A stretch of DNA of 64,000 bases from Chloroflexota bacterium (GTDB lineage Bacteria; Chloroflexota; Limnocylindria; Limnocylindrales; CSP1-4), in contig PLMA01000067.1 in the NCBI GenBank assembly GCA_003141455.1, positions 85,850-149,849 on the forward strand. Direction: 5' to 3'. The notes beneath the pieces are model-generated. The model had not been told where the DNA came from, did no database searches, and worked only from the letters and a program-made list of their open reading frames with translations. Numbering within the stretch: position 1 is the stretch's first letter; each line of letters starts with the position of its first letter. Positions 3,296 through 52,942 of this stretch are shown piece after piece. A program made the translations under genes and the position numbers.

Positions 3296-4963
3296 ATGAT
3301 CGGTGCGGACGTCACCGGCGACGTGATCCTCGCAACTGACGAATCGTCCACAGACCTGGCGGCCATCTCCGCGGCACGGCTCGGCGGCCGCGCCATCGCC
3401 CTCTCGGGCCTGGTGGTAATCGTCGGGGTTGTGCTCTCCCGATTGCTGGGCGAGGTCCGATTGGCCGTCCTCGGCGCCGAGTTCGGTGCGGGCGCCAACC
3501 TCGACGCGTTCACGGCCGCCTTCCGCATCCCAGACACGCTCTTCCAGCTGGTGGCCGCCGGTGCAATCGGCTCCGCGGTGGTGCCCGTGGCATCCGAGCT
3601 GATTGCCCACGGCGACACCGAGGGGGCGCGCCGGCTCATCTCGACCATCACGAACCTGATGATCCTCGTGCTGGCGCCGCTCGCGGCCATCGCCTGGCTC
3701 GCGGCTCCGGCCCTGGTGCCGCTGATCGCACCGGGCTTTGAGCCCGCCAGGATGCAGACGACCATCGACCTGACTCGGCTGATGCTGCTCTCGCCCATTT
3801 TCCTGGCGGTGGGCGCCGTGATGGCCGCGGGCCTGAACTCGCTCGGGATATTCGGCCCGCCGGCGATGGCGCCGAACGTCTACAACGTGCTCATCATCGC
3901 CGCGGCCATCGTTCTGACGCCGTTCTTCGGAATCCAGGCTCTTGCCATCGGCGTGGTCCTGGGTGCGCTGGGTCATGTCCTGACTCAGGCCCGGCCCTTC
4001 GTCGACCACCAGCTCTACCGGCCCGTTATGAACCTCGGCGACCCGGCGGTTCGAGAGACCCTCCTTCTCATGGGTCCGCGGGCGCTGGGCCTCGGAGCGA
4101 CGCAGCTCGTCTTCCTGGTCTACACGGTCTTCCTGTCGACCCTACCTCAGGGCGACGTCACGATCTTCAACTACTCGTTCATGGCTCTGCAGATCCCCGT
4201 CGGCTTGCTCGGCGTGCCCCTGGGAATCGTGCTGCTGCCGCCGCTGTCGCGAGCCTATTCTCTGGGCCAGCAGGGTCAGTTTCGAGCGCTCGCCGACCAA
4301 TCGCTCCGGCTTCTCCTCTTCGTCACGATCCCGCTGACAGGTCTCATGCTGGCCCTGGCCGCCCCCACGATCGCCCTCCTGTACGGCTATGGGAAGCTCA
4401 CCGCTGCCCATCAGGCGGCCATGGTGCCGGTTTTCATCGTCTTCCTGGCCGGTCTGGTGGCGCACGTCATGATCTCCCTCCTGGCTCCGATCTTCTACGC
4501 CGGGAAGGACACCAGGACACCCGTGACGGCCGCGTTGGTGGCCGTGGCAGTTGACATCGGCGCTGCTCTCGTCCTCTTCCCCTGGTTCCACTTGCAGGGC
4601 CTGGCCCTGGCGATAGGGCTGGGGGCCTGGGTTGAGGTGGTGATGCTGGTAGCCCTCATGGAGCGCCGCATCGGGTTCGATCTGCGGCCCATGGCCCGCC
4701 ACGCGGTGGCTTTCGTGGGCGGGGGATTGGTGGCCGCCGCGGCTGCCTACCTGGCAGACCGGTTCATCGAGCAATACACGGGCGGGCCTACCTCGTTCTT
4801 TGCGCGGATCGCGGAGCTTGTCCCGTCGGGTCTCGTGGGCCTGGCGGTATACGTCGCCTGGGCCCGAGCCTGCCGTTTGCCCGAGCTCGACGCGGCTTTC
4901 GAGCTTGTCCGCACGGTACTCGGCCGGGGGAAGGGAACCAGCCCGAAGCCCTCCAAGGCCTGA
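3296..4963 (+). CDS. murJ: Lipid II flippase MurJ (MviN)
   Basis: SRLLGEVR..FGAG..LDAFTAAFRIPD, ALQIPVGLLGV, FYAGKDTRTP; many TM segments. Start uncertain (ATG at 3203, 3287 or 3296). Confidence 0.92.
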   Translation: MIGADVTGDVILATDESSTDLAAISAARLGGRAIALSGLVVIVGVVLSRLLGEVRLAVLGAEFGAGANLDAFTAAFRIPDTLFQLVAAGAIGSAVVPVASELIAHGDTEGARRLISTITNLMILVLAPLAAIAWLAAPALVPLIAPGFEPARMQTTIDLTRLMLLSPIFLAVGAVMAAGLNSLGIFGPPAMAPNVYNVLIIAAAIVLTPFFGIQALAIGVVLGALGHVLTQARPFVDHQLYRPVMNLGDPAVRETLLLMGPRALGLGATQLVFLVYTVFLSTLPQGDVTIFNYSFMALQIPVGLLGVPLGIVLLPPLSRAYSLGQQGQFRALADQSLRLLLFVTIPLTGLMLALAAPTIALLYGYGKLTAAHQAAMVPVFIVFLAGLVAHVMISLLAPIFYAGKDTRTPVTAALVAVAVDIGAALVLFPWFHLQGLALAIGLGAWVEVVMLVALMERRIGFDLRPMARHAVAFVGGGLVAAAAAYLADRFIEQYTGGPTSFFARIAELVPSGLVGLAVYVAWARACRLPELDAAFELVRTVLGRGKGTSPKPSKA

Positions 4964-5011: not shown

Positions 5012-7954
5012 CTAGCCGCGCCGGGGCCCTCGACGGAATCCGACCCCGCGTCGTAGCCGGGCGATCACAGAGGCCGACAACGGCACGAGCGGCACGAACA
5101 CCGGCGCAGAAGTCTGCGGGGCGGGCGTGGGCGTCGGGGTCGGGGTCGGGGTCGGAGTGGCGGTGGGAGTCGGGGTGGCGACGTGCTTCGGGGTAGGAGT
5201 CGGAGTGGCAACGTGCTTCGGGGTAGGAGTCGGCGTAGGAGTCGGCGTTTCGGTCGGAGTCGGCGTAGGAGTCGGCGTAGGAGTCGGCGTTTCGGTCGGG
5301 CTGGCCGACGGCGGCGGTGAGCCCGTGTTGGACGTACATGTGTTCGTCGGCGCGAACGGCGCGCCCCACGTCTTGCCGAACGGCGTCCAGAACCCCGTCT
5401 GGTAGAAGTACATCGTGGCCCCGTTGTTGGGGCCGCCGCGTATGCCGACGCCCTGCCTGGCTCTGGCAATCCAGATCTGATCGTATTTCTGGAAGTTGCT
5501 GTTGCCGGAGTCAACCTGACTCAGGTCCAGCAGCCCCTGGGTTGCCTTGACCCCCGGGCAATCCCACGTCCACAGAGTGTTGCTGACAGTGTCCACGTCG
5601 ACCGGCACCTTCGTGTTGTCGACTTGCTGCGGCACCGTGCCGTCGATGAAGACTTCCTTGACCGTCTGCGTCGTGTACGGGCCCGGGAGCATTCCGCTGT
5701 TGGCGTCCACCGTGGCCCACGTGACGCCGCTCGGCTGCTTGAAGTCGACGACGGGGGTCTTCGCCGTGGCGTCCTGCATGAACGCGTGCCAGATCGGCGC
5801 CGCCATCTCGAGCGACATCACGCTATGGCCGGGCGCGTGGTCGCTGTTGCCGGCCCAGACTCCCGCCACGATGGCCGGAGCATTTGGGTCTGAGGGCGGG
5901 GCCACATACCCGACGGCGAAGAGATCCTCGGTCTGGTCGCTCGTGCCGGTCTTCAACGTCGCCGGCCGCCGCGCCTTGCCCTCGACCAGCTGGTACTGGC
6001 TCCACCAGTTGTTCTGTGCCGGGTCGGTATTGCCGGCCAGGATGCTCGTCATCACGTAGCTCGCCTGAGGCGTGGACGGATGCGTGATCTTTGGGGTGAG
6101 GGCAGCTGCCGGCACGACTTCTTTCCCGCTGGCGTCCGCGATTGACATGATCATCCGCCGCTGGACGAGTGTTCCGGAGTCGGCGATCGCGCCGTAGGCG
6201 GATACGAGATCGGCCGGGTGGACCTCCAGGGTGCCGATGCCTACCGAGACGCCCGGGTTCGCGTTGGCCGGGAATTGCAGCCCGAAGTCCTGGGCCCGCT
6301 GCATGACGCGCGCAACCGTGGTAATTGAAGCGGCCTTCACCGCCGGGATGTTCAGCGAGTACTGGAGAGCCTCGCGCAGCCGGACGGGGCCGCGCTCGAA
6401 GCCGTCGGCGTCGTGCGGCGTATAGCCCCCGCCGAAGTCCGTGGCCACATCCATGAAGAGCGAGGCCGCAGTCAGGCCCTTGCCCTGGATGCCGATCAGA
6501 TAGTTGATCGGCTTGAAGGCGGAGCCGGGCTGGCGGCCCACTCCGGAAGACAGGGCGTCGTACTCCGGGTCGAAGTAGTTCTGGCCGGCTTTGGCCGGAT
6601 CCTTGACTGGTTTCTCGTAGAATCCGGCGCTGCCGGCATAGGCGAGCACCTGTCCGGTCCGGTAGTCGACCGCGATGAGCACGCCGTTGTGGATGTTCCC
6701 GGTACGGAGACCAACGCTGCTGGTGGAGCTTGGACCGATGATCCGGGTGTAGTTGTACGGATCGCTCTTGGCGGTGATACCGATCCCGGGTTGGGCGAGG
6801 TAGGCGACGTCCTCGGCGAGCGTGCCCTGATTGGGCCCGAAGACGTACGCCTTGAGCCACTTCTCGGCCGAGCGCTGCATGTTCACGTCCAGCGTCGTTA
6901 TCACCCTGAGACCACCCGTGTCCACCTTCTGGCATTCGGCGGGATCGATACCCGGGTTGCAGAGCAAGTCCGCCAGCTGCTGGCGCACCAGCAGGTCGAA
7001 CTGCGGCGCGATGTTCGGTGGGCGATACGTCGGGTGGAGGATCACCGGCTCCGACTCCGCCAGCAGGAGGGTTGCGTCGTCGTACTTGCCCTTCAGCAGG
7101 CCATCGCGGTTGTTCTGGCGCATGTCCTCGAGAATCACGTTGCGCCGGCCCACGATCACCGCCTCGGGGGGCACCACCCACGTCCCGTCATCCCTCTGCT
7201 CGGCGTTCGCCACGAGGTCGTACGCCGAGGGCGCCTGCAACAGGGCGGCGATGATGACGGCCTGCGCGACGGTCAGCTGGTTGAGGTCCGTGACGCCGAA
7301 GTAGCCCTGCGCGGCGGCCGCGATGCCATAGCTCTGGTTGCCGAAGTAGTTGAGGTTCAGGTAAGCGGTGATGATCGACTGTTTGCCCTGGTCGCCCGGG
7401 TACTCCTGCGTCAGCCGAATCGACTGGATGATCTCCTTGATCTTGCGGTCGATGGTGCTGGTCGTCGGCGGCAGCAGCTGCATTCGAACGAGCTGCTGCG
7501 TAATCGTCGACGCGCCTCGAGCGTGGCCTGACAAGGCATCACGGAGCGCGGAGAGAACGGCTGCCGGATCGAATCCCGTGTTGGACCAGAAGGTCTTGTC
7601 TTCAGCGCTGGTCGTGGCATCGAGGACGGCCGGTGGGATCTCCGCAAACCCGAGGACGCGCCGGTTCTCCGAGCCGAAGGCCGCAAGCTGGACAGTGCCG
7701 GTCCGGTCGAGCAGGACGGTCTGCTGGTTGTACGGGATGGCCAGGAGCTTCTGTTTCGGGTCCTCGAGGTCCGCGCTGTAAGAGTGGTACATCTGCACCG
7801 CGCCCACGAAAGCCACCGAGCTGAGAACGAAGAAGGTCGCGAGCAGGAATAGCGGAAGCACGAGGGCTACCCGGCTGCCGGAGCCACCGCCTGGGCGATG
7901 AGTGCCGGCGCCGTTGCGACGACGGCGTTCACGTTGGGCGATGCTGGTCTTCAT
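5012..7954 (-). CDS. Class A penicillin-binding protein (transglycosylase + transpeptidase) with Pro/Thr tail
   Basis: TM anchor; GT51 motifs [28 protein letters not shown]; transpeptidase SAFK, SLN, KTG. Start MKTSIAQ at 7954. Confidence 0.93.
5127..5299 (-). repeat. Coding low-complexity (Pro-Thr)n repeats in the PBP tail
   Basis: Repeated ggagtc/ggcgta hexamers, with duplicated [10 protein letters not shown] and PTETPTPTP units. Confidence 0.9.
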
Positions 7955-39214: not shown

Positions 39215-39298
39215 CGTGGATAAGTAGCGAAACAACCGTTTCCCCAACCCAAACTGGTGGATAAGCCACTATCGCGGCAGGGGCCAGAAGCCTAGATT
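39215..39298 (+). promoter_or_regulatory. Two DnaA-box-like 9-mers plus TAGATT -10 (module 1)
   Basis: CGTGGATAA 39215-39223 and GGTGGATAA 39256-39264 (one mismatch each from TGTGGATAA); TAGATT 39293-39298. Confidence 0.6.
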
Positions 39299-39305
39299 CT
39301 GTCTT

Positions 39306-39643
39306 GCCCGGAGGGGCCAGCGAGATCATCACCGACTCAGCGGTTTCGACGGAAACGGTGTAGCGATCTACCGGAAGGTCCAGGGACCCGCAAGGGTTTC
39401 TGAACCGGAAAGCAGATCGTGAACCGCGGAAGTCGGAATGTAGAGGGTCGGTGGCAGTCCCGGCAGTGGCCGGAGCGCGGTCCGCCGTTTGAGCGAGGAG
39501 TTTTCGGACCCCTTGTTCGCGGAGGTCGAAGCGGCCGGTACACGCGAGACCGCAGTCTGATCGAACAGGTTCCTTCGGGCGTTTTCGTGTGTCCGGCGAG
39601 GGCGTCTGCCGCCGTGGCGCCCGGGGCACCGTCAGCCCGGGCA
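39306..39643 (+). ncRNA. Candidate ~340-nt structured ncRNA, family unknown
   Basis: Nested stems CCGACT/AGTCGG, GCGGTT/AACCGC, CGATCT/AGATCG, CAGGGACCC-GCAA-GGGTTTCTG, ACC-GGAA-GGT, TGTTCG/CGAACA, CC-TTCG-GG; 5'/3' ends pair; no credible ORF. Confidence 0.6.
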
Positions 39644-40555: not shown

Positions 40556-40639
40556 CGTGGATACCACCCGTCACGAGGGCGACCAGTTTCCAAACAGGTG
40601 GATAAGGCGGTTGGCATCGGACGCCCGGCGGACTAGATT
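40556..40639 (+). promoter_or_regulatory. Two DnaA-box-like 9-mers plus TAGATT -10 (module 2)
   Basis: CGTGGATAC 40556-40564, GGTGGATAA 40597-40605, TAGATT 40634-40639; spacing identical to module 1. Confidence 0.6.
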
Positions 40640-40646
40640 CGTTCTT

Positions 40647-40778
40647 GCCCGGAGGGGCCACGGACACCCGAACGACTCGATCGATTCTAGGATCGGCCGA
40701 ACGATGCGGGGTCGCGGTTCCTTCGGGCGCTCCATGTCCGTTCCAGGGCGGCCCGCCGTAGCCCGCACGCCGGCGGGC
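40647..40778 (+). ncRNA. Candidate ~130-nt shorter paralogue of the 39306-39643 RNA
   Basis: Same 5' GCCCGGAGGGGCCA and GGTTCCTTCGGGCG; stems CGGACA/TGTCCG, CGACTC/GGGTCG, CGATC/GATCG, GCCCG/CGGGC. Confidence 0.5.
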
Positions 40779-42222: not shown

Positions 42223-43053
42223 CTACAGGACCTCTTTGCCAAAGACGCGGTCGATGGGCAGATATCGGACGGGATCGGTCAGGCGGGGACCTGCTTGCCT
42301 TAGCCACGAGTCGAACCACACGTACCACGCCAACAAGGCGTTCTCGCCGAGGTCGTACGTCTCAGCTGGTTTGGGCATAAGAGCCTCGAGGCTTGGCCCG
42401 TGAGTGGCGTGGAGACGCGCTCTTTGCGGGCTGCCTGGTTGACCGAGCTTGGCGAGCTCGAGGTAGGTGCCTGCTCGCGCCACCACTCGATCAGGCACAA
42501 CAAGAAGATCAGGCTGTTCCGATCTGGGACATTCCTTGAGGGCTTGCGTGTAGTTCGCCTGGAAAGTCGCCGAAGCGGGACAATCGAATCCCCAAATCAC
42601 GAACAGGGATTCCGCGAGGGGCTGCAACTGGGCTGGCGCGAGGCAAAATCGCCGTTGTAGTCTTTTGAACGCACGTCCCTTCTTGATGGCATCCGCCATC
42701 TCCTGAGGCGACAGCATCGTCTTGACCTCCACAAGGCCGTACACAGCCTCAACGGGCCACAGCTCGTTTCGACTGCCGCCGTACAGCGGTGCGTTGTTGA
42801 GGACGTCCACGACGAGTAGATCGGCTTGACTAGAGAACTCCCCTTCAGAAGAGATCACCATTCCTGATCGAACGCCAAACTTCCGCGGCAGGTGCTGCTC
42901 AAGGAACCGGCCCACGATGTCCTGGCGGTTTTCACCGGCCGACAGATGGTGAGAAGCAAAGTCGCGACGGATCGCAGCAGACTGGTTGCGCATCTCTGCG
43001 GCGACCCCGGCCAGGTACTCCGGCAGGATTGCTGACTTAGGGGCACTGTTCAT
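42223..43053 (-). CDS. DUF6602-like PD-(D/E)XK nuclease-fold protein
   Basis: GE.RQ.IV.RFL..HLP..FGV.SG.VI...G..S.QAD..V.D, PVEAVYGLVEVK; visibly more AT-rich than the core genes. Confidence 0.75.
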   Translation of the reverse strand: MNSAPKSAILPEYLAGVAAEMRNQSAAIRRDFASHHLSAGENRQDIVGRFLEQHLPRKFGVRSGMVISSEGEFSSQADLLVVDVLNNAPLYGGSRNELWPVEAVYGLVEVKTMLSPQEMADAIKKGRAFKRLQRRFCLAPAQLQPLAESLFVIWGFDCPASATFQANYTQALKECPRSEQPDLLVVPDRVVARAGTYLELAKLGQPGSPQRARLHATHGPSLEALMPKPAETYDLGENALLAWYVWFDSWLRQAGPRLTDPVRYLPIDRVFGKEVL

Positions 43054-43604
43054 ACCCCGTACACCTTCAGGATGTCGTCGCCGTAGTGGTTGATCACTTT
43101 GATGGCGATGCAGCCGGAATCCGGGACTCGGAACGGGCGCGAAACCGTTGAGTTCAGCGAGGACCAGGCGGCCTCGTCGATGTCGGCACGGAGGGCGCGG
43201 CGGAGCTTGTCGTATGGGTCGTCATCGCCGAGGAAATATGCGTGGCGGACGAAGAACTGGCGGTTGTCGTAGGCGGTATCTATGAACCAGCAGGCGATGT
43301 CGGCGGTGGATTGGGGGACTATCTCGCCGTTGGTGGGCTTGTAGGTGTCGAGGCCGCGGATTTCGACCTGGAGCTGGCCCTCCCCTACCCTGCGGATGTC
43401 GACGTCGGGCTGGCCGAAGATGGAGAACAGGTTGCCGATGCGCGTCTTCTTGAGCAGGTCTTCGCCCATGCTGAGGTCCGGGTTCATTCGAACGGCCAGG
43501 ACGGTCAGGTTGCCGAAGCGCATCGCCTTGCCGGTCTCCTCGTCCGCACGGGCGTCGAACGCGAAGCCGCAGACATGACGGCCGATACCCTGTGCATCGC
43601 TCAA
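43050..43604 (-). pseudogene. C-terminal domain only of a type III-like site-specific DNA methyltransferase (Mod)
   Basis: CGFAFDA, RMNPDL.M.EDLLKKT..GNLF..FGQPD, DIACWFIDT.YD...FFVRHAYF, IAIKVINHYGDD; catalytic half absent; TTG 43604 comes from the repeated leader. Confidence 0.8.
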
Positions 43605-43619
43605 GGCCTTCCCCCGCTT

Positions 43620-43645
43620 GCGTGACGGTGCTCCCCTACTGTAGC
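43620..43645 (-). repeat. 26-bp promoter/leader repeat, copy 1
   Basis: GCGTGACGGTGCTCCCCTACTGTAGC (+ strand). Confidence 0.9.
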
Positions 43646-43690
43646 CCCTCGGCGCGGCCCCGGAGAGACCCGACCTGCGGTCGGCCGCGC

Positions 43691-44635
43691 TTACGGCCGG
43701 AACCTGGCCTCGCCGTGCCAGCTGAGCATGTCGCGCGAAGGCTGCTCGAATGCGGCTTGCGGCAATCGGATTGGGCAACCATCGAGTTCGTAGTACTCCC
43801 GTCCGTTCTCGAACTCCTCGTGGATCCGCCGACTGACACGAACCCGCAGGTCATCGGGCGTCACCGTCATGTAGCCGAGATCGAAGAGGGTATGCAGGTC
43901 GGATCGGAGCAGGAGCCCGTTCGAGACCTCGTGGCGGCCGACGAGGTTGTAGGGCTTGATGTGCGCGGCCTCCAGCACCGGCAGCGTCCGCTCTCCCGTC
44001 ACGACGCATCGACGGTCATAGGCATCCGTGACCATGACGCGAAATGCGCCCTGGCCAAGCCGGGGGCGAACGAGGAGTGGGCTACCGTACGATGCCGCCG
44101 GGCCGTCACTGGTCGCATGCGCGAGATCCGCGATTGGCTGCGCGGAACTGACTACCGCCAGCGCCTCCAAGACGCGCAGCCAGAGGCGCTGGCCCTCGCC
44201 GATCTCGGTGTCGTATGTCTTGCCGCGCGTGAGATTCGAGGACCAGTCGGCGGGCGGCTCGATCCACATCTCCCTTGGCAGGAAGAATGGCTCGACGAGG
44301 ATCGAGGCGCCAATCTGCGTGCTGAGCGGATCCACAGCCCTTTCGCTATGCCTGCGAACCAGTTGGAGGAATGCGTCGTAGGAGGCAGCACCGTTGGACT
44401 TACCAAAGGCGTCCCAAGCGAGCTGCGGTGTCAAGGTCGAGTAGTGCGCAAACCGCGCGCCGCCGACGATGTATCCGCCGTTGCGGACGTGGAGCTTGAA
44501 GAGCCACGGTGCGCCTTCGGGCAGAGTGACCGGGCGCACATTGTTGGGCTGCCAGAAGTTCACCTCGTCGATAGGTGCGACCGAAGTGAGGTAGCTGACC
44601 CAGGAAGAGTCTGTGTTCGCGACCCAGTACCGCAC
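43691..44635 (-). CDS. HNH endonuclease with N-terminal putative DNA-reader domain (type IV restriction-like)
   Basis: YWVANTD..W..YL...DEVNFWQP; RLGQGAFR..V..AY...C.VTG...LEAAHI.P...H.V.NGLLLRSDLH.LFD. Confidence 0.88.
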   Translation of the reverse strand: MRYWVANTDSSWVSYLTSVAPIDEVNFWQPNNVRPVTLPEGAPWLFKLHVRNGGYIVGGARFAHYSTLTPQLAWDAFGKSNGAASYDAFLQLVRRHSERAVDPLSTQIGASILVEPFFLPREMWIEPPADWSSNLTRGKTYDTEIGEGQRLWLRVLEALAVVSSAQPIADLAHATSDGPAASYGSPLLVRPRLGQGAFRVMVTDAYDRRCVVTGERTLPVLEAAHIKPYNLVGRHEVSNGLLLRSDLHTLFDLGYMTVTPDDLRVRVSRRIHEEFENGREYYELDGCPIRLPQAAFEQPSRDMLSWHGEARFRP

Positions 44636-44762
44636 TCGTGGAGTCTACGAGGGCGCGGACTCTCGCGGAATACCCACTTGTGCCTGGCCCGCGAAGGCGC
44701 TCCATCGATGTGCCGCCCACTACTCACCCAGCTTCGGCGTGCTCGGAGCGATGAAGCCGCCT

Positions 44763-44787
44763 GGGGTCCACGTAGATCATTCTGGAC
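44763..44787 (-). pseudogene. Possible eroded Mod catalytic motif (VQ-MIYVDP)
   Basis: GTCCAG-A-ATGATCTACGTGGACCCC resembles KVQMIYIDPPY with a 1-nt insertion; very short. Confidence 0.3.
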
Positions 44788-44872
44788 CTGGATGTGGATC
44801 GGGATCGCCGGCACGACGAGCGCCCCCGACGGAGGTCGGCGCGGCCGGCTTGCCAATTCTCCTGGCCAACGC

Positions 44873-45283
44873 TTACTTCCCGCTTACCTTCGCTGCCGTC
44901 GCATCCATGATCGTTTGGGCGCCTGCCACTGCTTCCTCGGCTTCCGTCCACGTTGGCTCGTCCGGATCACCCAGCTCGGTTACGTATCGCACGCCTCGAG
45001 CCATCGCGCTGAGCGACGCCAGCGTCTTCATCGACACGCCGAGGTTCAGATCCGCAGGCAGCATCGACTTGAGGGCAACCAGGTTGTGATCGCGCGGAGG
45101 TTCGATCCCCTCGGCCACTGGCACCGCCTTCATCGACTTCTCGGCAGCCTGCTGAGCGTGGAAACCAGCTGCCCAAGGCTCCATGTCGGGCCCCCTCTTC
45201 AGGATGACCCTGGCCAGCGCGAGGTCCGTCTTGGCCTTGGCAAGCCAGAGTTCCGCGACCGCAAGCTGCTCAGCTGCGCGCAT
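44873..45283 (-). CDS. HEPN domain protein
   Basis: WLAKA..DL..A....FHAQQAAEKSMKA...PPRDHNL..L; coupled to the MNT gene. Confidence 0.88.
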   Translation of the reverse strand: MRAAEQLAVAELWLAKAKTDLALARVILKRGPDMEPWAAGFHAQQAAEKSMKAVPVAEGIEPPRDHNLVALKSMLPADLNLGVSMKTLASLSAMARGVRYVTELGDPDEPTWTEAEEAVAGAQTIMDATAAKVSGK

Positions 45284-45815
45284 AGATGGTGACCCCCTCC
45301 CGAAGGGCCGGGCGCAGCGTGGATCCAGCGAGATTGGCGCCTCGCGCAAGCTGCTCCGGCGTGGCAACGATCACGTCAGTGGACAGCGGGATACCCTGGA
45401 GCGCCTGGTAGATGGCTACCTCGATGTCTCGTCCTCGCTGCACGCCGGACACAACGATCAGCAGGTCCGCGTCGCTGTCGGGACGAGCCTCCCCCCGGGC
45501 CTGGGAACCGAAGAGGATGATCTTCTCCGGCTTGAAGCCACGGACGATGCGGCGCTTGATCAAGGGCAGCCACTCGATTGCTTGTTGCGACAGACGCAGC
45601 TTCTGCTTCTTCGCTCCCCTCTTTGGCCCGGAGCTCGCCCGGTAGTCTTCCACCTCAGCGCGTCTCCAGATTCGGCCGTTGGCGACGATGGCCGCCGGCG
45701 CGGGAAAATCAGGCCTGGAGGCCCAGTCGCGGATGAAGTTGGGCACGTTGACGCCGTAGATCTCGGCAGCCTCCTTGGTGCCCAGGAGCTCCATTGGAGT
45801 CTCGCGCTCGCTCAT
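45270..45815 (-). CDS. AlpA/excisionase-like HTH fused to a minimal nucleotidyltransferase (MNT)
   Basis: N-terminal LLGTKEAAE..GV......RPDFPAP......GRIW...EV; C-terminal IILFGSQARG.ARPDSDADLL. Confidence 0.85.
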   Translation of the reverse strand: MSERETPMELLGTKEAAEIYGVNVPNFIRDWASRPDFPAPAAIVANGRIWRRAEVEDYRASSGPKRGAKKQKLRLSQQAIEWLPLIKRRIVRGFKPEKIILFGSQARGEARPDSDADLLIVVSGVQRGRDIEVAIYQALQGIPLSTDVIVATPEQLARGANLAGSTLRPALREGVTIYARS

Positions 45816-45821
45816 GTCGTT

Positions 45822-45840
45822 ATGATAGCATCACTATCAT
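45822..45840. promoter_or_regulatory. Inverted-repeat operator over the HTH-MNT promoter
   Basis: ATGATAG-CATCA-CTATCAT; the minus-strand TATCAT lies 6 nt before ATG 45815. Confidence 0.65.
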
Positions 45841-45950
45841 TAGATACACGCCCCCCTCTGCAGCGAGCTCACGTGCGCGCGGACGAGGTTGGCCGCGTCC
45901 CAGGGATCGGTGACTTCCAAGAAGGACCACCGGCCCAGGCCGCCGCGCTC
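45840..45950 (-). pseudogene. Extreme C-terminal remnant of a type III-like restriction subunit (BPTD_3080-like)
   Basis: ERGGLGRWSFLEVTDPWDAANLVRA resembles the GGFGRWAFLEI.DPWD terminus recalled for this family. Confidence 0.6.
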
Positions 45951-46029
45951 TGATAGGAGCAGGTCCCAGCGACCCGGATACCTCTCCAACCAGGCCCGTC
46001 TTGGTTCAGTCGATGCTCGCGCTTGTGCG

Positions 46030-46476
46030 TCAGTGCGGCGAGGGAATCGCCGGCGAATGAGTGGGAATCCCTCGCATTATCACGTCGGTGAGGTACTGGC
46101 TGACGAGTCCCGAGATGGGCACTAGGAAGGTCAGCATGAGCGTGGTGAAGACGATGAAGCAAGCGATCTTGAACGACGCGCTTCTCGCGTAGCCGCGCGG
46201 AAGCCAGGGCGAAAGCAGCACCGGGAGAGCCATAGGGAAGAGATCGGCTGCCCCGATCGCCGCATAGATACCGGGTCCCGAAGTCAGCCCGCCGACGATG
46301 AACCCAAGCCCGATCACAAGCCCGACAGCGCCGCACGCGAGGACCAACCGGTCGAGATGAATACCTCGGGTCCGAGCGGGCTTGCTCTGGACTTCGCGCA
46401 CGGCCGCCAGCCCGAGATCGGATGCGCCGCCGACCATCTCGCGCGTGCCGCGGCAATCCGGGAACTGGGGAATGCA
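46030..46476 (-). CDS. Membrane protein or remnant with a partial topoisomerase-type C4 zinc-finger motif
   Basis: C..QFPDCRGTR lies upstream of the ORF-track start, followed by 3 TM segments; start unclear. Confidence 0.45.
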   Translation of the reverse strand, partial: CIPQFPDCRGTREMVGGASDLGLAAVREVQSKPARTRGIHLDRLVLACGAVGLVIGLGFIVGGLTSGPGIYAAIGAADLFPMALPVLLSPWLPRGYARSASFKIACFIVFTTLMLTFLVPISGLVSQYLTDVIMRGIPTHSPAIPSPH

Positions 46477-46492
46477 GGTGATGCTGAGTAGC

Positions 46493-46807
46493 TCACCGGC
46501 GTTCCTCGGTCAACCAAGTGAGGATCACCAGGGGGATGATGATGACGATCCACGGGATGAAGTAGACCTGGCTCGTGAAATAGGCGGCGAAGTCGCTCAA
46601 GCCCTTCGGCGCCGTCAGCGCGGCCCACAGGCAGAGAACCGGCAACGTCAGCGCCCATATCCCAAGCGCGAGCCGAAGGAACTCGTGCAGGAAGCTGCCG
46701 CTTGGTCGGATGACCGCGTCGAAGGACGCGCCGCAATGGCGACAGGCCTTGTCGCTCGCGGCCACCAGGCCGCCGCAGTTGGAACAGACCCGATCTGCCA
46801 CCCTCAC
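46493..46807 (-). CDS. Zinc-ribbon membrane protein
   Basis: CSNCG......ACRHCG followed by two TM helices. Confidence 0.7.
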   Translation of the reverse strand: MRVADRVCSNCGGLVAASDKACRHCGASFDAVIRPSGSFLHEFLRLALGIWALTLPVLCLWAALTAPKGLSDFAAYFTSQVYFIPWIVIIIPLVILTWLTEERR

Positions 46808-46832
46808 CCCGCTCCTTGTTCGAGACGCGGGT

Positions 46833-47223
46833 TCAATGTACTCCTCCCCTCGCCTGCGGCGTCTCGTCGTGCGTGTCGGCGTCGAAGGCGGCGATCGAGG
46901 CGCGCAGGTTGCCGGCGACCTGCCTGGGGTCCGCCAGGATAGCCCGCAGGTTCAGTCGCGAGGTGTAGTAGGCCTCGATGCCGGTCACGGTCTTACAAGA
47001 CGGGGCCGACGGTCTGCACGGTCAGGGTCTTGCCGCGGGCGAGGACCTGGGCTTTGGTGGGCTCGAGGACGCAGTCGAGCCGGCGGAGCAGGACGAGCGG
47101 CAGGATGACCCGGCCGTACTCGGACTGCTTGTGATCGCCGCGCAGCAGATCGGCGATGGCCCAGATGAGGCCGGCGTGGTTGGTGGGCGCGGCGTGATTC
47201 GTGGCGGCGCTGCCCTCGGCCAA
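46833..47223 (-). pseudogene. hsdM: Type I R-M methyltransferase HsdM, N-terminal fragment with frameshift
   Basis: [36 protein letters not shown], a +1 shift at ~46995, then TGIEAYYTS.LNL..ILADP..VA.NL; truncated after ~120 codons. Confidence 0.85.
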
Positions 47224-47240
47224 CTGATACCCCCGGGAAC

Positions 47241-47266
47241 GCGTGACGGTGCTCCCCTACTCTAGC
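47241..47266 (-). repeat. 26-bp promoter/leader repeat, copy 2
   Basis: GCGTGACGGTGCTCCCCTACTCTAGC. Confidence 0.9.
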
Positions 47267-47310
47267 CAGTTGCGGCACGGTTCGAACTGCCCAGCCGGCG
47301 AGCGACAGTC

Positions 47311-47349
47311 TTGACACGCCATCGTCGACGTGTAGCATATGCGCTACAC
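47311..47349 (+). promoter_or_regulatory. Sigma70-type promoter with palindromic operator
   Basis: TTGACA 47311-47316, TAGCAT 47333-47338, GTGTAGC-N6-GCTACAC 47330-47349; AGGAG SD follows. Confidence 0.75.
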
Positions 47350-47361
47350 CAGGAGACAGGC

Positions 47362-47724
47362 GTGAAGACTGAATTCGATCGCGACTTCGATGGCTGGATG
47401 CAAGATCCGGAGTTCGCAGACGGTTACGCCCTGGAGCGCAGGCGGATCGATGCTATCGACCGGATCGTTCACGCTCTGGACGCGGCCCGGCAGGAGCGCG
47501 GCATGACGAAAGCCGACGTGGCGCGTGCTGCCGGTCTCCCCGCGCAATCGGTTCGCCGCTTCTTCACGCAGAGCCCGCAGAATCCCACGCTGTCGGTGAC
47601 TGTTGCCATAGCCTCTGCTGTCGGTCAGCCTTTGATCACGACCGAAGCTGCCGCACCCGTGGAGCGTCGAAGTCCGGCAGCACCGACGAGGGCTACAGCG
47701 CCACGGACCGCGGTCGCCGGCTGA
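47362..47724 (+). CDS. XRE-family HTH antitoxin-like protein
   Basis: FD..M.DPEF...Y..ER.RID.ID.I..ALD.AR...GMTKADVAR......VRR.FT...NPTL. Confidence 0.8.
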   Translation: MKTEFDRDFDGWMQDPEFADGYALERRRIDAIDRIVHALDAARQERGMTKADVARAAGLPAQSVRRFFTQSPQNPTLSVTVAIASAVGQPLITTEAAAPVERRSPAAPTRATAPRTAVAG

Positions 47725-47881
47725 GGTATTCGTCTCCAAGGGCTCGGATCCGCGCGTAGTCGGCCGTGGTGAAGACCGTCAGGTATGGCTTGGTCATGCC
47801 TCCCAGGATGATCAGGGACGGGCCCGGCAGGCCGTTCGCCGCCGTTTGACGCTCCAGAAGGCAGAAGAGCCGGTAGTGGAG
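47693..47881 (-). pseudogene. C-terminal half of a RelE/HigB-like toxin
   Basis: LHYRLFCLLERQ...GL.GPSLIILGGMTKP..TVF...DYARIRALGDEY; in-frame stop upstream, no start. Confidence 0.6.
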
Positions 47882-47940
47882 CCGCCGGCCGCCTCGGGCC
47901 GTAGGTCACGACGCCCCATAGCGTTCACTCAGCCTTGACG

Positions 47941-47960
47941 GGTTATCAGAAGTGATAACC
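47941..47960. promoter_or_regulatory. Palindromic operator upstream of an orphan HTH gene
   Basis: GGTTATCA-GAAG-TGATAACC, directly after TTGACG. Confidence 0.65.
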
Positions 47961-47980
47961 TGCCCCGAGAAAGGGAGCGA

Positions 47981-48328
47981 ATGAACAAGCAGGCCGTGTC
48001 GACCCCGTTCAATCCCATTGGCAGCGAGTTCGCCGCGTCTCGCGAGTTGAGGCGGCGCGACCCTGCGTATGCGGCAGCCGAGGCCGAGTTGGCTCCGATG
48101 GAGGCGCTGGCCAGGCTCTTGATCGCCTACCGCATTGAGCAGGGGCTGACCCAAATGGCTCTCGCCGAGCGCGTGGGCACGAGTAAGACCGCCATCTGCC
48201 GGCTCGAGAGTGGCCAGCACAAGCCTTCGGTGGAGACGCTCGTGAAGATAGGGCGTGCGCTCGGGCAGAAGCTGGTCATTGGCTTTGAGGATGCGTCCGG
48301 CCGGAGGGACGTCGCGACCATTTCTTAG
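47981..48328 (+). CDS. Orphan XRE-family HTH antitoxin (HigA-like)
   Basis: RDP.Y.AAE.EL...LA.LLI.YR...GLTQ..LAERVGTSK.AI.RLESG.H.PS..TL.KI..ALG. Confidence 0.85.
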   Translation: MNKQAVSTPFNPIGSEFAASRELRRRDPAYAAAEAELAPMEALARLLIAYRIEQGLTQMALAERVGTSKTAICRLESGQHKPSVETLVKIGRALGQKLVIGFEDASGRRDVATIS

Positions 48329-48509
48329 TTCGCCGTGGGCCTGAGCAACGCTACGGTGAAGCTGGCCCGGGGCGGGAAGCAGGGCGATCCCTGTGGTCCC
48401 GGCGCGGCGACTCCAATGGTCTGCCTTCGACTGCAGGCTGGCGCGCAGGCAGACGTCCACCGGCAGTCTCCCGCCCATTCGGCCGAAGGCCAACTGGTTC
48501 CCCCGGAGT

Positions 48510-48535
48510 GCGTGGCGGTGCTCCCCTACTCTAGC
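48510..48535 (-). repeat. 26-bp promoter/leader repeat, copy 3
   Basis: GCGTGGCGGTGCTCCCCTACTCTAGC. Confidence 0.9.
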
Positions 48536-48562
48536 GAGACGGGGCAAGCCGAGATGGTTGCG

Positions 48563-48856
48563 TCAACAGTCCTGCGCGTATTCCTCGAGCAGCTGGCGCA
48601 CCACCGCGCTGACGCTCTTGCCCTCGCTCGCTGCGCGCGCCGACACGCGACGATGGAGCGCGTCGGGAACCCGGGCTTCGATCCGGGGGGAATGGCCGCC
48701 AGCGGCTGCGCTCAAGGAGGGCCGCCCTCGGCGAGGCTTCCAGGTCGAAAGATCGAAGCCTTCTTCGGCCCTCTCGGCCAAGCGGTCGAGATCGGTCTCG
48801 GACAGGGCTCGTCGGCTCTTGGCGATGACCTTCCCGGTCGTCACTGTTCTCGCCAT
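48563..48856 (-). CDS. RHH/CopG antitoxin
   Basis: ERAEEGFD.....RRGRPSL......SP.I.ARV...L...V..RA..EGKSVS.VVR. Confidence 0.85.
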   Translation of the reverse strand: MARTVTTGKVIAKSRRALSETDLDRLAERAEEGFDLSTWKPRRGRPSLSAAAGGHSPRIEARVPDALHRRVSARAASEGKSVSAVVRQLLEEYAQDC

Positions 48857-50242: not shown

Positions 50243-51715
50243 ATGGAAGCGACACGACTCCTGAAGGTATTTGTGGGGCTCTCGTTCCTGGTCGGCGTGG
50301 CGGCGTGCTCCGGCGCGACCAGCACGGTCCCCGTCAGTGCCGGCAGCTCTGGGACGGCCACTGCCGTCCAGTCGTCGGGCACCGCCGCCCCCAGCGCCGC
50401 CGGCCCGGCCAGCGTCGTCTCCATCAACAGCGGCGGCCCGCAGACGGGCGGCTTCGCGGCCGATCAGTTCTTCACCGGCGGCGCCACCTACGGCAACAAC
50501 GCGACCAGCGACATGTCGCAGATCACGTCCACCCCGCCGCCCGCGGCGATCTTCAACACCGAGCGGTACGGAGCGATGACGTACACCATCCCCGACCGCT
50601 CGGGCGCGCAGGCCGTCACCCTCTACTTCGCCGAGACATACCTGTCGGGCCCGGGCCAGCGGCTGTTCGACGTGACCATCAACGGCACGACGGTCCTCTC
50701 GAAGTTCGACATCTACGCCGGCGCCGGAGGCCCGAACCGCGCCATCGCCAAGACGTTCACCACCACCGCCAACTCAAGCGGCCAGGTGGTGATCCAGTTC
50801 ATATCCGGCACCGAGAACCCCAAGATCAACGGCATCACGGTCAGCGGCAGCGGTAGCACCCCCACGCCCCCGCCCCCGACTCCGACCCCAACGCCCGCCG
50901 CACCGCCCACCAACAGCGCCGACGTCAAGCCCAGCGCCGGCTGCGGCAAGACCCCCGCGCTGGCGAACGGGTCGATCACCATCCAGAGCAACGGCACGCG
51001 CTCGTACATCCTCCGCGCCCCGGACAACTACGACAGCAACCATCCGTACCGGCTCGTCCTCGCCTACCACTGGATGGGCGGAACGGCGCAGCAAGTGGCC
51101 GACGGCACCGGGGCCACGGAGGCCCCGTTCTACGGCCTCTGGAACCCGGCCAACAACAGCACCATCTTCGTGGCGCCGGTGGGCCTGGGTTCGGGCACGA
51201 ACACCGGCTGGCCGAACACCAACGGCCAGGACGTCGCATTCACCGACGCAATGCTCGCCCAGCTCGAGGCCGGGCTCTGCATCGACACGGGCCGGATCTT
51301 CGCCACCGGGTTCAGCTACGGCGCCGGCATGTCCTACGAGCTCGCGTGCGCCAGGCCCGACGTGTTCCGGGGAGTCGCGCTCTATTCGGGCGGAGCGCTC
51401 AGCGGCTCCTGCGGCGGCACAACGCCCATCGCCTTCTACGCATCGCACGGCCTGAGCGACAGCGTCCTCGACATCTCGAACGGGCGGGCCCTACGCGGCC
51501 ACTTCGTGCAGGTCAACGGCGTAACACCACAGGACCCACCCGAGCCTGCGGTCGGCAGCGGGACGCACATCTGCACGACGTACAAGGGGGGCTCCGCCCA
51601 GCACCCGGTCGAATGGTGCGCCTTCGACGGTGACCACAACCCGAATCCGCACGACAGCGGCCAGAGCACCAGCTGGAACCCCCCGCAGGTGTGGGCTTTC
51701 ATCAGTCAGTTCTGA
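50243..51715 (+). CDS. Lipoprotein: malectin domain + Pro/Thr linker + CE1-like (feruloyl) esterase
   Basis: VAAC lipobox; INSGG..FAADQFF...IFNTER...V.LYFAE.....RLFDV.ING..FDI; GFSYGAG nucleophile elbow; C-terminal HNP. Confidence 0.85.
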   Translation: MEATRLLKVFVGLSFLVGVAACSGATSTVPVSAGSSGTATAVQSSGTAAPSAAGPASVVSINSGGPQTGGFAADQFFTGGATYGNNATSDMSQITSTPPPAAIFNTERYGAMTYTIPDRSGAQAVTLYFAETYLSGPGQRLFDVTINGTTVLSKFDIYAGAGGPNRAIAKTFTTTANSSGQVVIQFISGTENPKINGITVSGSGSTPTPPPPTPTPTPAAPPTNSADVKPSAGCGKTPALANGSITIQSNGTRSYILRAPDNYDSNHPYRLVLAYHWMGGTAQQVADGTGATEAPFYGLWNPANNSTIFVAPVGLGSGTNTGWPNTNGQDVAFTDAMLAQLEAGLCIDTGRIFATGFSYGAGMSYELACARPDVFRGVALYSGGALSGSCGGTTPIAFYASHGLSDSVLDISNGRALRGHFVQVNGVTPQDPPEPAVGSGTHICTTYKGGSAQHPVEWCAFDGDHNPNPHDSGQSTSWNPPQVWAFISQF

Positions 51716-51776
51716 TACTCCGCGGAGACTCCGCTCGACGACTGGCCGCGCTCAAGAACGCCCCGGAGCCGGAGGT

Positions 51777-52865
51777 TCAGTACCAGCCGTGCTCGGTCCG
51801 GAATGCCAGGGCGGCACACGGCGATCCATAACGCTCGGTCATGTAGTCGACGCCCCACTCAGCCTGCACTACCGGGTTATCCCGCCACGCCCGGTACAGC
51901 CGTGCGGCCTCGGGATCGCCGGCCTTTGCCGCTGCCGCGGCCTTGGCCTCTGCCCACTTTCCCAGCTTGCTCGCCGGGTAGGCCTGAGGCAAGCCGTACG
52001 CGCCCGACCTCTTGTTGGTGGCATGCGGATCCCAGCGAGCTTCGTACTCGAATATCAGGCTGGCGCACTGAGACTGAGACCGGCCCCAGTGCCGATCCAC
52101 GCCGGCGCCCAATCGGGCGCCCAGATAGTTCCTCGCGTCCTGGACCGTTGGCAGAGCGACCGACGCTACCTGGAGTGGCCGCGCCTCGACGACGGCGGGC
52201 GCCGGAGTGTTCGGTACCGGCTTGACTGGTTCCGCGTTCGAGGTCGGGGCCGGCGTCGGTCCAGGCGTCGGGTTGGAGGTCGCACCGAGCGTCGGTCCGG
52301 GTGTCGGGTTCCAGGTCGGGCCCGGCGTCGGCACGGCTGTCGGGCTCGAGGTCGCCGGCGGCTGCTCGGTGATCGATGGAAGACTCGCTATCTGAGCCGA
52401 GTCGGCGACAACGACGAGAACCGGCGCATTGCGAGTCGGCAGGGCATCGGCCGAGGCAGTCGAAGGGACGGCGGAGGCACTGCCGGCGACCAGAACCGCC
52501 ACGACGGTAGCGTATGCACCGAACGTGGAGATGCCACGCAGGCGGCCGGCCAGGATGGCCGACGTTCGAGCCTGACTACGTCCGCCCCGGCAGTTCGCGC
52601 CGAATGCCACCAGTTCGTCGTAGGTAATCGGGAATTCGATGCCCCATTGATCGAGCGCGGTGCCATGCCTCGGCAGCAACGTCGGGATCGAAAGGCGCCA
52701 GGAGGAAATGGCCTGGGCGAAGCTCGATGGGGTCGGCTGTACGAGCCCAGCAAGATCCTCGGGGAGCAGCGGAAACTGGATACCCCATTGACCCAGGGCA
52801 TCGAGGGACGACCGCGGGGCCGCAGTTTGGCGCATACATGGACTGTCGGGCAAACGCCGCCGCAT
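51777..52865 (-). CDS. Membrane-anchored lysozyme-like/lytic transglycosylase domain protein
   Basis: C...E..W.P.A....SGAYGLPQA.P..K...NP..Q.EWG..Y...RYG.PC.A......GWY, Pro/Thr stalk, TM; start uncertain. Confidence 0.8.
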   Translation of the reverse strand: MRRRLPDSPCMRQTAAPRSSLDALGQWGIQFPLLPEDLAGLVQPTPSSFAQAISSWRLSIPTLLPRHGTALDQWGIEFPITYDELVAFGANCRGGRSQARTSAILAGRLRGISTFGAYATVVAVLVAGSASAVPSTASADALPTRNAPVLVVVADSAQIASLPSITEQPPATSSPTAVPTPGPTWNPTPGPTLGATSNPTPGPTPAPTSNAEPVKPVPNTPAPAVVEARPLQVASVALPTVQDARNYLGARLGAGVDRHWGRSQSQCASLIFEYEARWDPHATNKRSGAYGLPQAYPASKLGKWAEAKAAAAAKAGDPEAARLYRAWRDNPVVQAEWGVDYMTERYGSPCAALAFRTEHGWY

Positions 52866-52942
52866 TCAAACCGTACGAGCGGAGAATCCTCAATCGCCGG
52901 ATGTACTGCCGCCACCTGACTGTCGGCGTGTGGCCGAGCGCC

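Follow-up and report, generated by a model that had tools for sequence, protein, structure and literature searches.

A short promoter-like leader recurs on decayed and intact restriction-modification operons in a toxin-antitoxin and defence island of uncultured Chloroflexota

The 64-kb window considered here (positions 85,850 to 149,849 of contig PLMA01000067.1, from a Chloroflexota bacterium; G+C content about 68%) includes, at about 41-50 kb, an island of some 9 kb in which gene calls and Pfam matches place toxin-antitoxin and defence genes. On one side the island borders on a glycosyltransferase gene and hflX-miaA-miaB, on the other on a malectin-domain gene. Read along the minus strand, it begins with a small open reading frame (ORF) and a ribbon-helix-helix (RHH) gene, followed by a repeat copy called E3, the non-coding repeat rep150, a HigA-like helix-turn-helix (HTH) gene and a toxin remnant. 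A second HTH gene, the copy E2, a truncated hsdM, zinc-ribbon and membrane protein genes and a 3' fragment of res come next, and the series ends with an MNT/HEPN pair, a 5' fragment of mod, an HNH gene, the copy E1, a C-terminal fragment of Mod, a DUF6602 gene and a PIN toxin-antitoxin pair. This is a decayed toxin-antitoxin and restriction-modification island near hflX in which three operon 5' ends remain. E1, E2 and E3 are copies of the short element that is the subject of this report, and we conclude with moderate confidence that it is a lineage-specific promoter/leader of about 45 nt, reused and recombined among operons; in this window it sits on decayed ones.

The preliminary description of this DNA had listed three same-strand copies of a 26-bp sequence at 43620, 47241 and 48510, and the listing is accurate. 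The 26-mer GCGTGRCGGTGCTCCCCTACTSTAGC occurs on the plus strand at these three places, there are no further matches in the window at up to three mismatches, and none is expected by chance (100 dinucleotide shuffles). An 18-nt minus-strand core returns the same three sites against an expectation of 0.06, and an nhmmer profile of the leader found no weaker or degenerate copies elsewhere in the 64 kb. Neither the 26-mer nor the core has a reverse-strand match in the window, and all copies are direct in every locus. The minus-strand layout proposed earlier, TA(G/C)AGT followed at a distance by GGGGG, six nucleotides and a TTG start (43604, 47223 and 48493), is likewise as described; in full the window copies read GC-TA(G/C)AGT-AGGGGAGCACCGYCACGC, 4-5 variable nt, GGGGG, 6 nt and TTG. 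The repeat (family D2) extends over only about 47 nt, with 72-83% identity among the copies, and was therefore not duplicated together with long flanks.

The 26-mer is the core of a unit of about 45 nt made up of TAGAGT, the 16-nt block AGGGGAGCACCGYCAC, a spacer, GGGGG and TTG. When copies from relatives are included, 4-8 variable nt precede the GGGGG run and 6-9 nt separate it from TTG. TAGAGT or TACAGT, in each window copy a consensus match to a -10-type TAnnnT hexamer, lies 36-38 nt 5' of TTG in all three and 30-41 nt 5' of it in related copies. Across the aligned related copies the orientation of the element is constant, as is its spacing to the start codon. Within the 26-mer no self-complementary word is longer than CTAG, there is neither dyad nor hairpin, and shuffled sequences fold more stably than the ~47-nt units themselves; weak folding and the missing dyad are what would be expected of an open translation-initiation region. 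The leader was rejected as a structured RNA on this low structure and on Rfam 15, no family of which matches the window at gathering score or 43400-48800 even at E<=5. An att site derived from tRNA or tmRNA was also rejected, there being no tRNA in the window and, by inspection, no tRNA-like 3' end. Differences in the length of the spacer from core to TTG are not divisible by three, so the element is not translated. An exact-sequence search of the literature found the motif in no paper.

Relatives were sought by an exact-pattern scan of one genome per species (596 Gb) and by a metagenome scan that added 23 peat and soil contigs; the resulting loci carry labels beginning with L. The genome scan located the leader core in six Chloroflexota metagenome-assembled genomes (MAGs), two of them titled Candidatus Limnocylindrales. 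Within each MAG the matches are confined to a single stretch of about 8 kb, and the element is therefore specific to the island. Four matches outside the Chloroflexota (Geobacteraceae, a cyanobacterium and two in one Actinomycetota MAG) have only a 20-22-mer in common with it, and because about four chance matches are expected for a 19-base pattern in 596 Gb they were treated as chance. The Actinomycetota pair (L006 3130-3153 and L008 1192-1215) reads GCTACAGTAGGGGAGCACCGCC, with 22 nt identical to the leader core; the two share a 110-nt upstream flank, and one lies about 17 nt before a tRNA gene. This similarity was judged a chance resemblance to a -10 region.

Among the aligned loci, homology starts sharply on the left at GCTAGAGT and extends to the start codon, beyond which the leader continues in several ways. 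In the majority of loci (class A) it runs into TTGGCCGAGGCC, the start of hsdM, and intact hsdM follows the element in L009b and L011. Class B continues with TTGAGCCAGGGCAGC, then an 18-codon upstream ORF and the ATG of a 980-aa type III Res, the consensus ..GGGGGA..TTGAGCCAGGGCAGC.. being found in L002, L012, L020, L023 and L044. In class C the leader runs into the ATG of an ORF of 97 aa located before res. Single cases lead to an Imm5-like gene, a GH84/NAGidase-like glycosidase, an HNH gene (behind a degenerate leader) and Mod 3' fragments. The operons so headed are long, 7 kb for the type I hsdM-hsdS-(RHH/PIN)-hsdR and 6 kb for the type III res-MNT/HEPN-mod. Tabulation of downstream genes in this and related genomes, as the preliminary description had proposed, shows one near-identical upstream region standing before the non-homologous hsdM, res, 97-aa ORF, Imm5-like gene, NAGidase-like gene and Mod fragment with DUF6602, which is the pattern of a reused promoter. 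The window and L023 have three copies per island, and L009, L013, L015, L018 and L040 have two each.

Pattern searches force identity within the pattern, and loci were therefore also sampled by protein homology. The HsdM homologues of L038, L039 and L040 (88, 87 and 85% amino acid identity) belong to intact operons with the core TAGAGTAGGGGAGCACCGYCAC exact, 30-35 nt before TTG; the core is also exact in the second L040 copy, before an HsdM_N::DUF4328 fusion gene. HsdM homologues at 82% (L041) and 79% (L042) show no trace of the element. The Res homologue of L044 (83%) lies in an intact res-MNT-HEPN-mod operon with 21 of 22 core positions matching; those of L043 (86%) and L045 (77%) are without it, and in L043 a leader of about 110 nt is absent between an upstream c97-like gene and res. 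All told, the copies before intact operons comprise four exact ones at hsdM and the one type III copy just mentioned, and copies on relic genes are sometimes mutated (L015, L018, L023). Across intact class A loci the core is 98% identical, third positions of the coding sequence are 83-92% identical, and the 40 nt upstream are only about 40% identical and hence unrelated. The earlier suggestion that the element is better conserved than what follows it is borne out by these figures, which point to an element that is lineage-specific, tied to functional operons and more constrained than its surroundings.

Homology to these loci shows that all three window copies are remnants of ordinary operons that are intact elsewhere; the cargo originally described as a type III Mod fragment, an hsdM fragment and an unrecognisable frame was correctly described. 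For annotation, this means that what appear as three "genes" after the repeats are what is left of two type I operons and one type III operon. E2 leads into a 5' fragment of hsdM, with about 89% identity to the intact genes, a one-base insertion near 46995 and an end of homology at about 46865. The zinc-ribbon and 135-aa membrane protein genes (46030-46807) take the place of the rest of hsdM, and could be transcribed from E2. At E3 only TTGGCC of hsdM is left, and the next base already belongs to rep150. The end of rep150 also holds ACTTGGCC, so that GGCCAA/TTGGCC is shared at the joint and the junction is accounted for by microhomology deletion or recombination, through which hsdM would have been reduced to these six bases. 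E1 has a class B leader (TTGAGC), and about 25 nt further on the sequence enters the last 174 codons of mod. This fragment has 94% nucleotide identity to L002 1-273, starting at window position 43574, and 93% amino acid identity to the C-terminus of the L043 mod product; the 184-aa frame as a whole is 79-93% identical to the C-termini of 866-896-aa N6_N4_Mtase genes. The res 3' fragment, intact MNT/HEPN pair and mod 5' fragment that lie 5' of E1 are colinear with the intact operons of L043 and L044, and HNH and E1 therefore replace about 1.9 kb in the middle of mod. E1 is a res-type leader now joined to the 3' end of mod and to the DUF6602 gene, which is probably co-transcribed from it.

The sequence upstream of the leader is as varied as that downstream. 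Flank types include a divergent HigB/HigA-like pair, same-strand toxin genes, an RHH pair, ParE, Fic and the c97 gene, and they combine freely with the downstream classes. For two flanks all four pairings were found: U1-E-hsdM (L011, L038), U1-E-res (L002), U5-E-hsdM (L028) and U5-E-res (L012). In these loci the switch in homology lies between ...CACCGTCA and GGGGGA, inside the element. Since two flank types each occur with both operon types and the switch falls within the element, it is a recombination joint. Breakpoints in independent copies lie at -8, -3, 0, +6, +8, about +25 and +51 relative to TTG, often at microhomologies such as TTGGCC, and deletions also have a hotspot in the first part of hsdM, which is GCC-rich and of low complexity. 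The array E-hsdM'-rep150-c97-E-res of L023 suggests how such mosaics may arise, in that recombination between its direct leader copies would yield U-E-res. More generally, the directly repeated leader may serve as a homology patch where the modules on either side of it are recombined or lost.

The second repeat of the island, rep150, belongs to a non-coding family of about 150 nt (72-82% identity, with conserved blocks; 25 copies in the loci) whose ends show weak inverted similarity, GGGACGGTGAAGCTGGCC ... GGCCAAGTCGTCC. The window has a single copy; others lie in L023 at 1062-1203, 2409-2516, 3913-4058 and 5579-5720, and related islands hold up to 5 per 7 kb in uniform orientation. The usual position is 3' of HigA-like, Imm5-like or truncated hsdM genes. 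In at least 10 contigs hsdM is truncated within the same 13 nt (codon ~166, directly after ...NVEMGYLYE) and followed by rep150, as at L004 5898, L018 3828, L023 5538, L024 3686, L028 1373, L032 784, L013 964 and L015 3664. This recurrent break could be one old, widely inherited insertion or a preferred target; an unresolved neighbour-joining tree (296 nt) did not separate truncated from intact hsdM copies. A structured RNA or attC site was rejected for rep150 (fold z-scores of +0.2 and -1.3, a covariation term near 0 and no Rfam match), and the presence of indels not divisible by three speaks against a coding sequence. A miniature inverted-repeat transposable element (MITE)-like unit, a terminator region and a protein-binding site are all candidates for its identity.

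The constant orientation of the leader, its TAnnnT hexamer, its start codon with a G-run at Shine-Dalgarno distance, its low structure and its tighter conservation before intact operons lead us to infer that it acts as a promoter, 5' untranslated region (UTR) and initiation module. In this proposal the -10-like TAGAGT, the Shine-Dalgarno-like GGGGG and the TTG just beyond it would be the expression signals. In a peat and soil clade of Chloroflexota the leader heads type I and type III operons and has also been reused before other genes. ECF (extracytoplasmic function), sigma-54 and reverse-strand promoters were rejected by eye, the candidate -35 and -24 positions lying in non-conserved sequence.

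A number of observations weigh against this proposal. No conserved -35 was found 16-18 nt upstream, where the DNA is unrelated between copies, and a sigma-70 consensus scan gave no site at the element. Promoters with a -10 alone do occur in high-GC bacteria, and would fit the missing -35. The 16 nt after the hexamer are highly conserved, which a -10 hexamer alone does not explain. E3 has no real ORF behind it, its frame being antisense to the ~150-nt repeat and to the HTH_3 antitoxin-like gene. The depth of comparison is modest, the lineages having diverged by 8-17% at third codon positions, and most copies come from the exact-pattern search, which inflates apparent invariance within the pattern. 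Moreover, in five or six independent cases the relic junction is no more than about 10 nt away from TTG, and selection for promoter capture accounts for only some of this clustering.

Because conservation of the 16-nt block goes beyond what a promoter needs, the block suggests an operator or a leader signal for a further factor. Taken to its conclusion, this would mean that a dedicated factor acts in trans on the block as its cis-site; candidates are a repressor or operator protein and an RNA-binding regulator, or else the block would be a signal like ops/JUMPStart for an antiterminator of the NusG type. The factor would co-ordinate long, horizontally acquired restriction-modification operons, the promoter perhaps lying in TAGAGT or upstream. 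The block is as conserved as the hexamer and common to two unrelated operon types; it is asymmetric and unstructured, so that it would need linear reading; and the operons it heads are long. No candidate factor consistently adjoins the element, however, its upstream neighbours varying among HigBA-like and other toxin-antitoxin pairs, Fic and an ECF sigma factor, and we consider this explanation unlikely. JUMPStart/ops leaders are short, asymmetric, conserved 5' leader sequences of several unrelated, long, horizontally acquired operons that depend on RfaH. The Chloroflexota leader resembles them in being short, asymmetric, non-coding and common to unrelated long operons, but inspection finds no similarity to ops on the sense strand, there is no linked NusG paralogue, and the Chloroflexota leader includes a -10-like hexamer and lies about 20 nt from the start codon. 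Another comparison is with the C-boxes of restriction-modification controller (C) proteins, dyad-symmetric sites located before the C gene. Here too a conserved, putatively regulatory site lies 5' of restriction-modification genes with HTH genes near, but the leader is no dyad operator beside a C gene: what adjoins it changes from copy to copy, and the HTH genes nearby are members of variable toxin-antitoxin pairs. At the opposite extreme, the copies might be functionless debris, the 5' ends of genes duplicated or transferred too recently to have diverged. That all three window copies sit on broken genes, that some relic copies elsewhere are mutated and that the compared lineages are closely related would fit such debris; it is nonetheless improbable, given a core matching at 21-22 of 22 positions before intact operons amid unrelated flanking non-coding DNA, and common to operons that are otherwise dissimilar. 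The repeat stops about 6 nt past the start codon in copy 3 and about 6-25 nt past it in copy 1, so neither arose by duplication with flanks. Nor are the copies one gene family duplicated with long flanks and no other cargo, the outcome that would have undone the preliminary description: the short repeat, the junctions at it and the varied cargo all speak otherwise.

That description had pictured a fixed expression and recombination site at which defence cassettes are inserted or swapped, like an integron without a local integrase. Modules do re-assort at the element, but no fixed crossover base exists, and the likeness to an integron fails on the variable junctions (-8 to +51) and the lack of a dyad or hairpin, while the supposed array consists of ordinary operon 5' ends (copies 2 and 3 of hsdM, copy 1 of type III res). 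A site-specific, integron-like site served by a recombinase encoded elsewhere is accordingly given little credence. In its favour are the several direct copies per island in many contigs with varying cargo, the sharp left edge in more than six contexts, the two operon types found with each of two flank types, the clustering of junctions near TTG, and rep150, which often bounds units on their 3' side. Against it, junctions fall at differing bases that coincide with microhomologies, most copies are simply hsdM or res 5' ends, and 20.8 kb of the window recur with 0-1 mismatches in contigs from independent samples, so that the array is invariant among them. No integrase or transposase Pfam match was found in the gene calls within 10 kb on either side (32-53 kb) or in 10 further window ORFs, a search that is not exhaustive for the whole genome. 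Boxes resembling attC (CAACTG...CAGTTG and GTTGGCC, similar to RYYYAAC/GTTRRRY, of the R''/R' type) can be seen in copies 2 and 3, but the remaining copies lack them or differ at these places. Integrons (intI, attI, Pc and attC cassettes) are alike in setting an expression signal before variable cargo, often toxin-antitoxin or defence genes, in having several direct repeats in an array, and in cargo that differs between relatives. The leader system, unlike them, has no integrase, no attC-like imperfect palindrome and no fixed junction base; its "cassettes" are ordinary operon fragments, each with its own promoter-like element in place of a single Pc. Recombinase, attC hairpin and fixed junction are also missing when it is compared with clusters of attC sites lacking integron-integrases (CALINs), in which absence of IntI is inherent. 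Variable junctions without dyad or recombinase read as general or illegitimate rather than site-specific recombination, and the exchanges probably took place at a repeated leader that is selectively retained. Most improbable of all would be the terminus of a small transposable element, a MITE or the end of an insertion sequence with an outward-facing promoter. The short length of the element, its several copies, its sharp left boundary and the variety of its neighbours would suit such a terminus, but neither the window nor the loci hold an inverted partner copy, target-site duplications are not evident in the aligned flanks (no systematic search was made), no transposase accompanies it, there is one island per genome, and its right side is continuous with hsdM or res coding sequence. 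A bolder proposal, which we regard as rather unlikely, is that the leader, perhaps with rep150, is a purpose-built boundary of the Chloroflexota defence and toxin-antitoxin island, a lineage-specific protein at the 16-nt block both controlling expression of the type I and type III operons and promoting breakage or exchange by the start codon; module swapping would then be promoter-anchored and mechanistically unrelated to integrons.

Table 1. Leader copies, rep150 and neighbouring genes of the island, in window coordinates
Feature	Position	Strand	Details and basis
Leader copy E3, class A (hsdM type)	48491-48537	-	26-mer 48510-48535, GGGGG 48500-48504, TTG 48493-48491
rep150, ~150-nt non-coding repeat abutting E3, 3' of HigA-like gene	48345-48493	+	BLAST/alignment to relatives
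HTH_3 (HigA-like) antitoxin-type gene, convergent with E3	47981-48328	+	Pfam
Second HTH (Xre-type) gene, divergent from E2	47362-47724	+	Pfam, gene call
Leader copy E2, class A	47221-47268	-	26-mer 47241-47266, GGGGG 47230-47234, TTG 47223-47221
hsdM 5' pseudogene, codons 1 to ~118	46865-47223	-	alignment, BLAST; HsdM_N Pfam on 76-aa gene call
Zn-ribbon membrane protein gene	46493-46807	-	Pfam, gene call
135-aa putative membrane protein gene	46030-46437	-	gene call; no Pfam match
Type III res 3' end fragment	45871-45945	-	83% nt identity to L002 3591-3665; tblastn Res aa 945-976
MNT (nucleotidyltransferase)/HEPN pair	44873-45815	-	Pfam; between res and mod in intact L043, L044
Type III mod 5' fragment	44781-44889	-	88-92% nt identity to L002 2148-2417
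HNH_2 endonuclease gene, between mod 5' fragment and E1	43691-44635	-	Pfam; 89% nt identity to L018 1379-2368
Leader copy E1, class B (type III res type)	43602-43647	-	26-mer 43620-43645 with TACAGT, GGGGG 43611-43615, TTGAGC 43604-43599
184-aa ORF: TTG + ~9 codons, then C-terminal 174 codons of type III Mod	43050-43604	-	homology to L002, L043
DUF6602 gene, 4-nt overlap with Mod fragment	42223-43053	-	Pfam, gene call

Several further features of the window and of the related islands deserve mention. The HigA-like gene of the window has 84-89% amino acid identity to homologues in L005, L018, L004, L015 and L009, which are paired with Gp49/HigB-like toxin genes. Toxin-antitoxin pairs also lie inside the intact operons: MNT/HEPN between res and mod (L043 6001-12539, L044 620-7225), an HTH/PIN pair in its place in L002, and RHH/PIN between hsdS and hsdR (L038 4001-10028, L039 4001-10031). 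The fusion gene of L040 (2252-3655, 467 aa) joins an HsdM N-terminal domain to DUF4328 and a zinc ribbon, has its own leader copy and is directly 5' of an intact hsdM operon; the zinc-ribbon and membrane genes of the window were considered as homologues of it and rejected, the match being only a generic zinc-ribbon one. In L003 (about 4606-4700) hsdM is interrupted by low-GC sequence, ATTATTTGGCCAATTGCCTATAT..., perhaps one end of some other mobile element. A 580-aa AAA_15/AAA_21 (OLD/AbiEii-type) ATPase gene lies 3' of truncated hsdM in L018 (10581-12323), in a stretch of lower G+C at third codon positions, and other defence genes thus accumulate in the same island.

Elsewhere in the window, a 28-nt direct repeat (39292-39319 and 40633-40660, 93% identity; CTAGATTC..TCTTGCCCGGAGGGGCCA) flanks the glycosyltransferase gene, each copy being preceded by CCAAACNGGTGGATAAG; it looks like another reused leader of the -10/Shine-Dalgarno type. 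Three and a half tandem 36-nt units at 52228-52355 (73-79% identity) probably lie within a coding region, ORF 51630-52919 or its antisense.

The nearest described phenomenon is promoter reuse by putative mobile promoters, in which highly similar upstream sequence is found before non-homologous genes within and between related prokaryotic genomes (Mob Genet Elements 2012, PMC3575422). As there, the shared upstream sequence is separate from the downstream gene. Unlike mobile promoters as described (PMC3575422), the leader spans the region from a -10-like hexamer through the start codon, occurs in each genome only in a single toxin-antitoxin and restriction-modification island, stands before two classes of restriction-modification operon and marks recombination joints; its role as a promoter is putative.

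One short leader is thus common to two unrelated classes of restriction-modification operon and to several other genes. It is kept while its surroundings are replaced, and marks where modules re-assort. If the 16-nt block is a regulator site, this would suggest that several defence systems are under joint control in an uncultured lineage of phylum level, and the 22-nt tag would also offer a handle for finding such islands in metagenomes.

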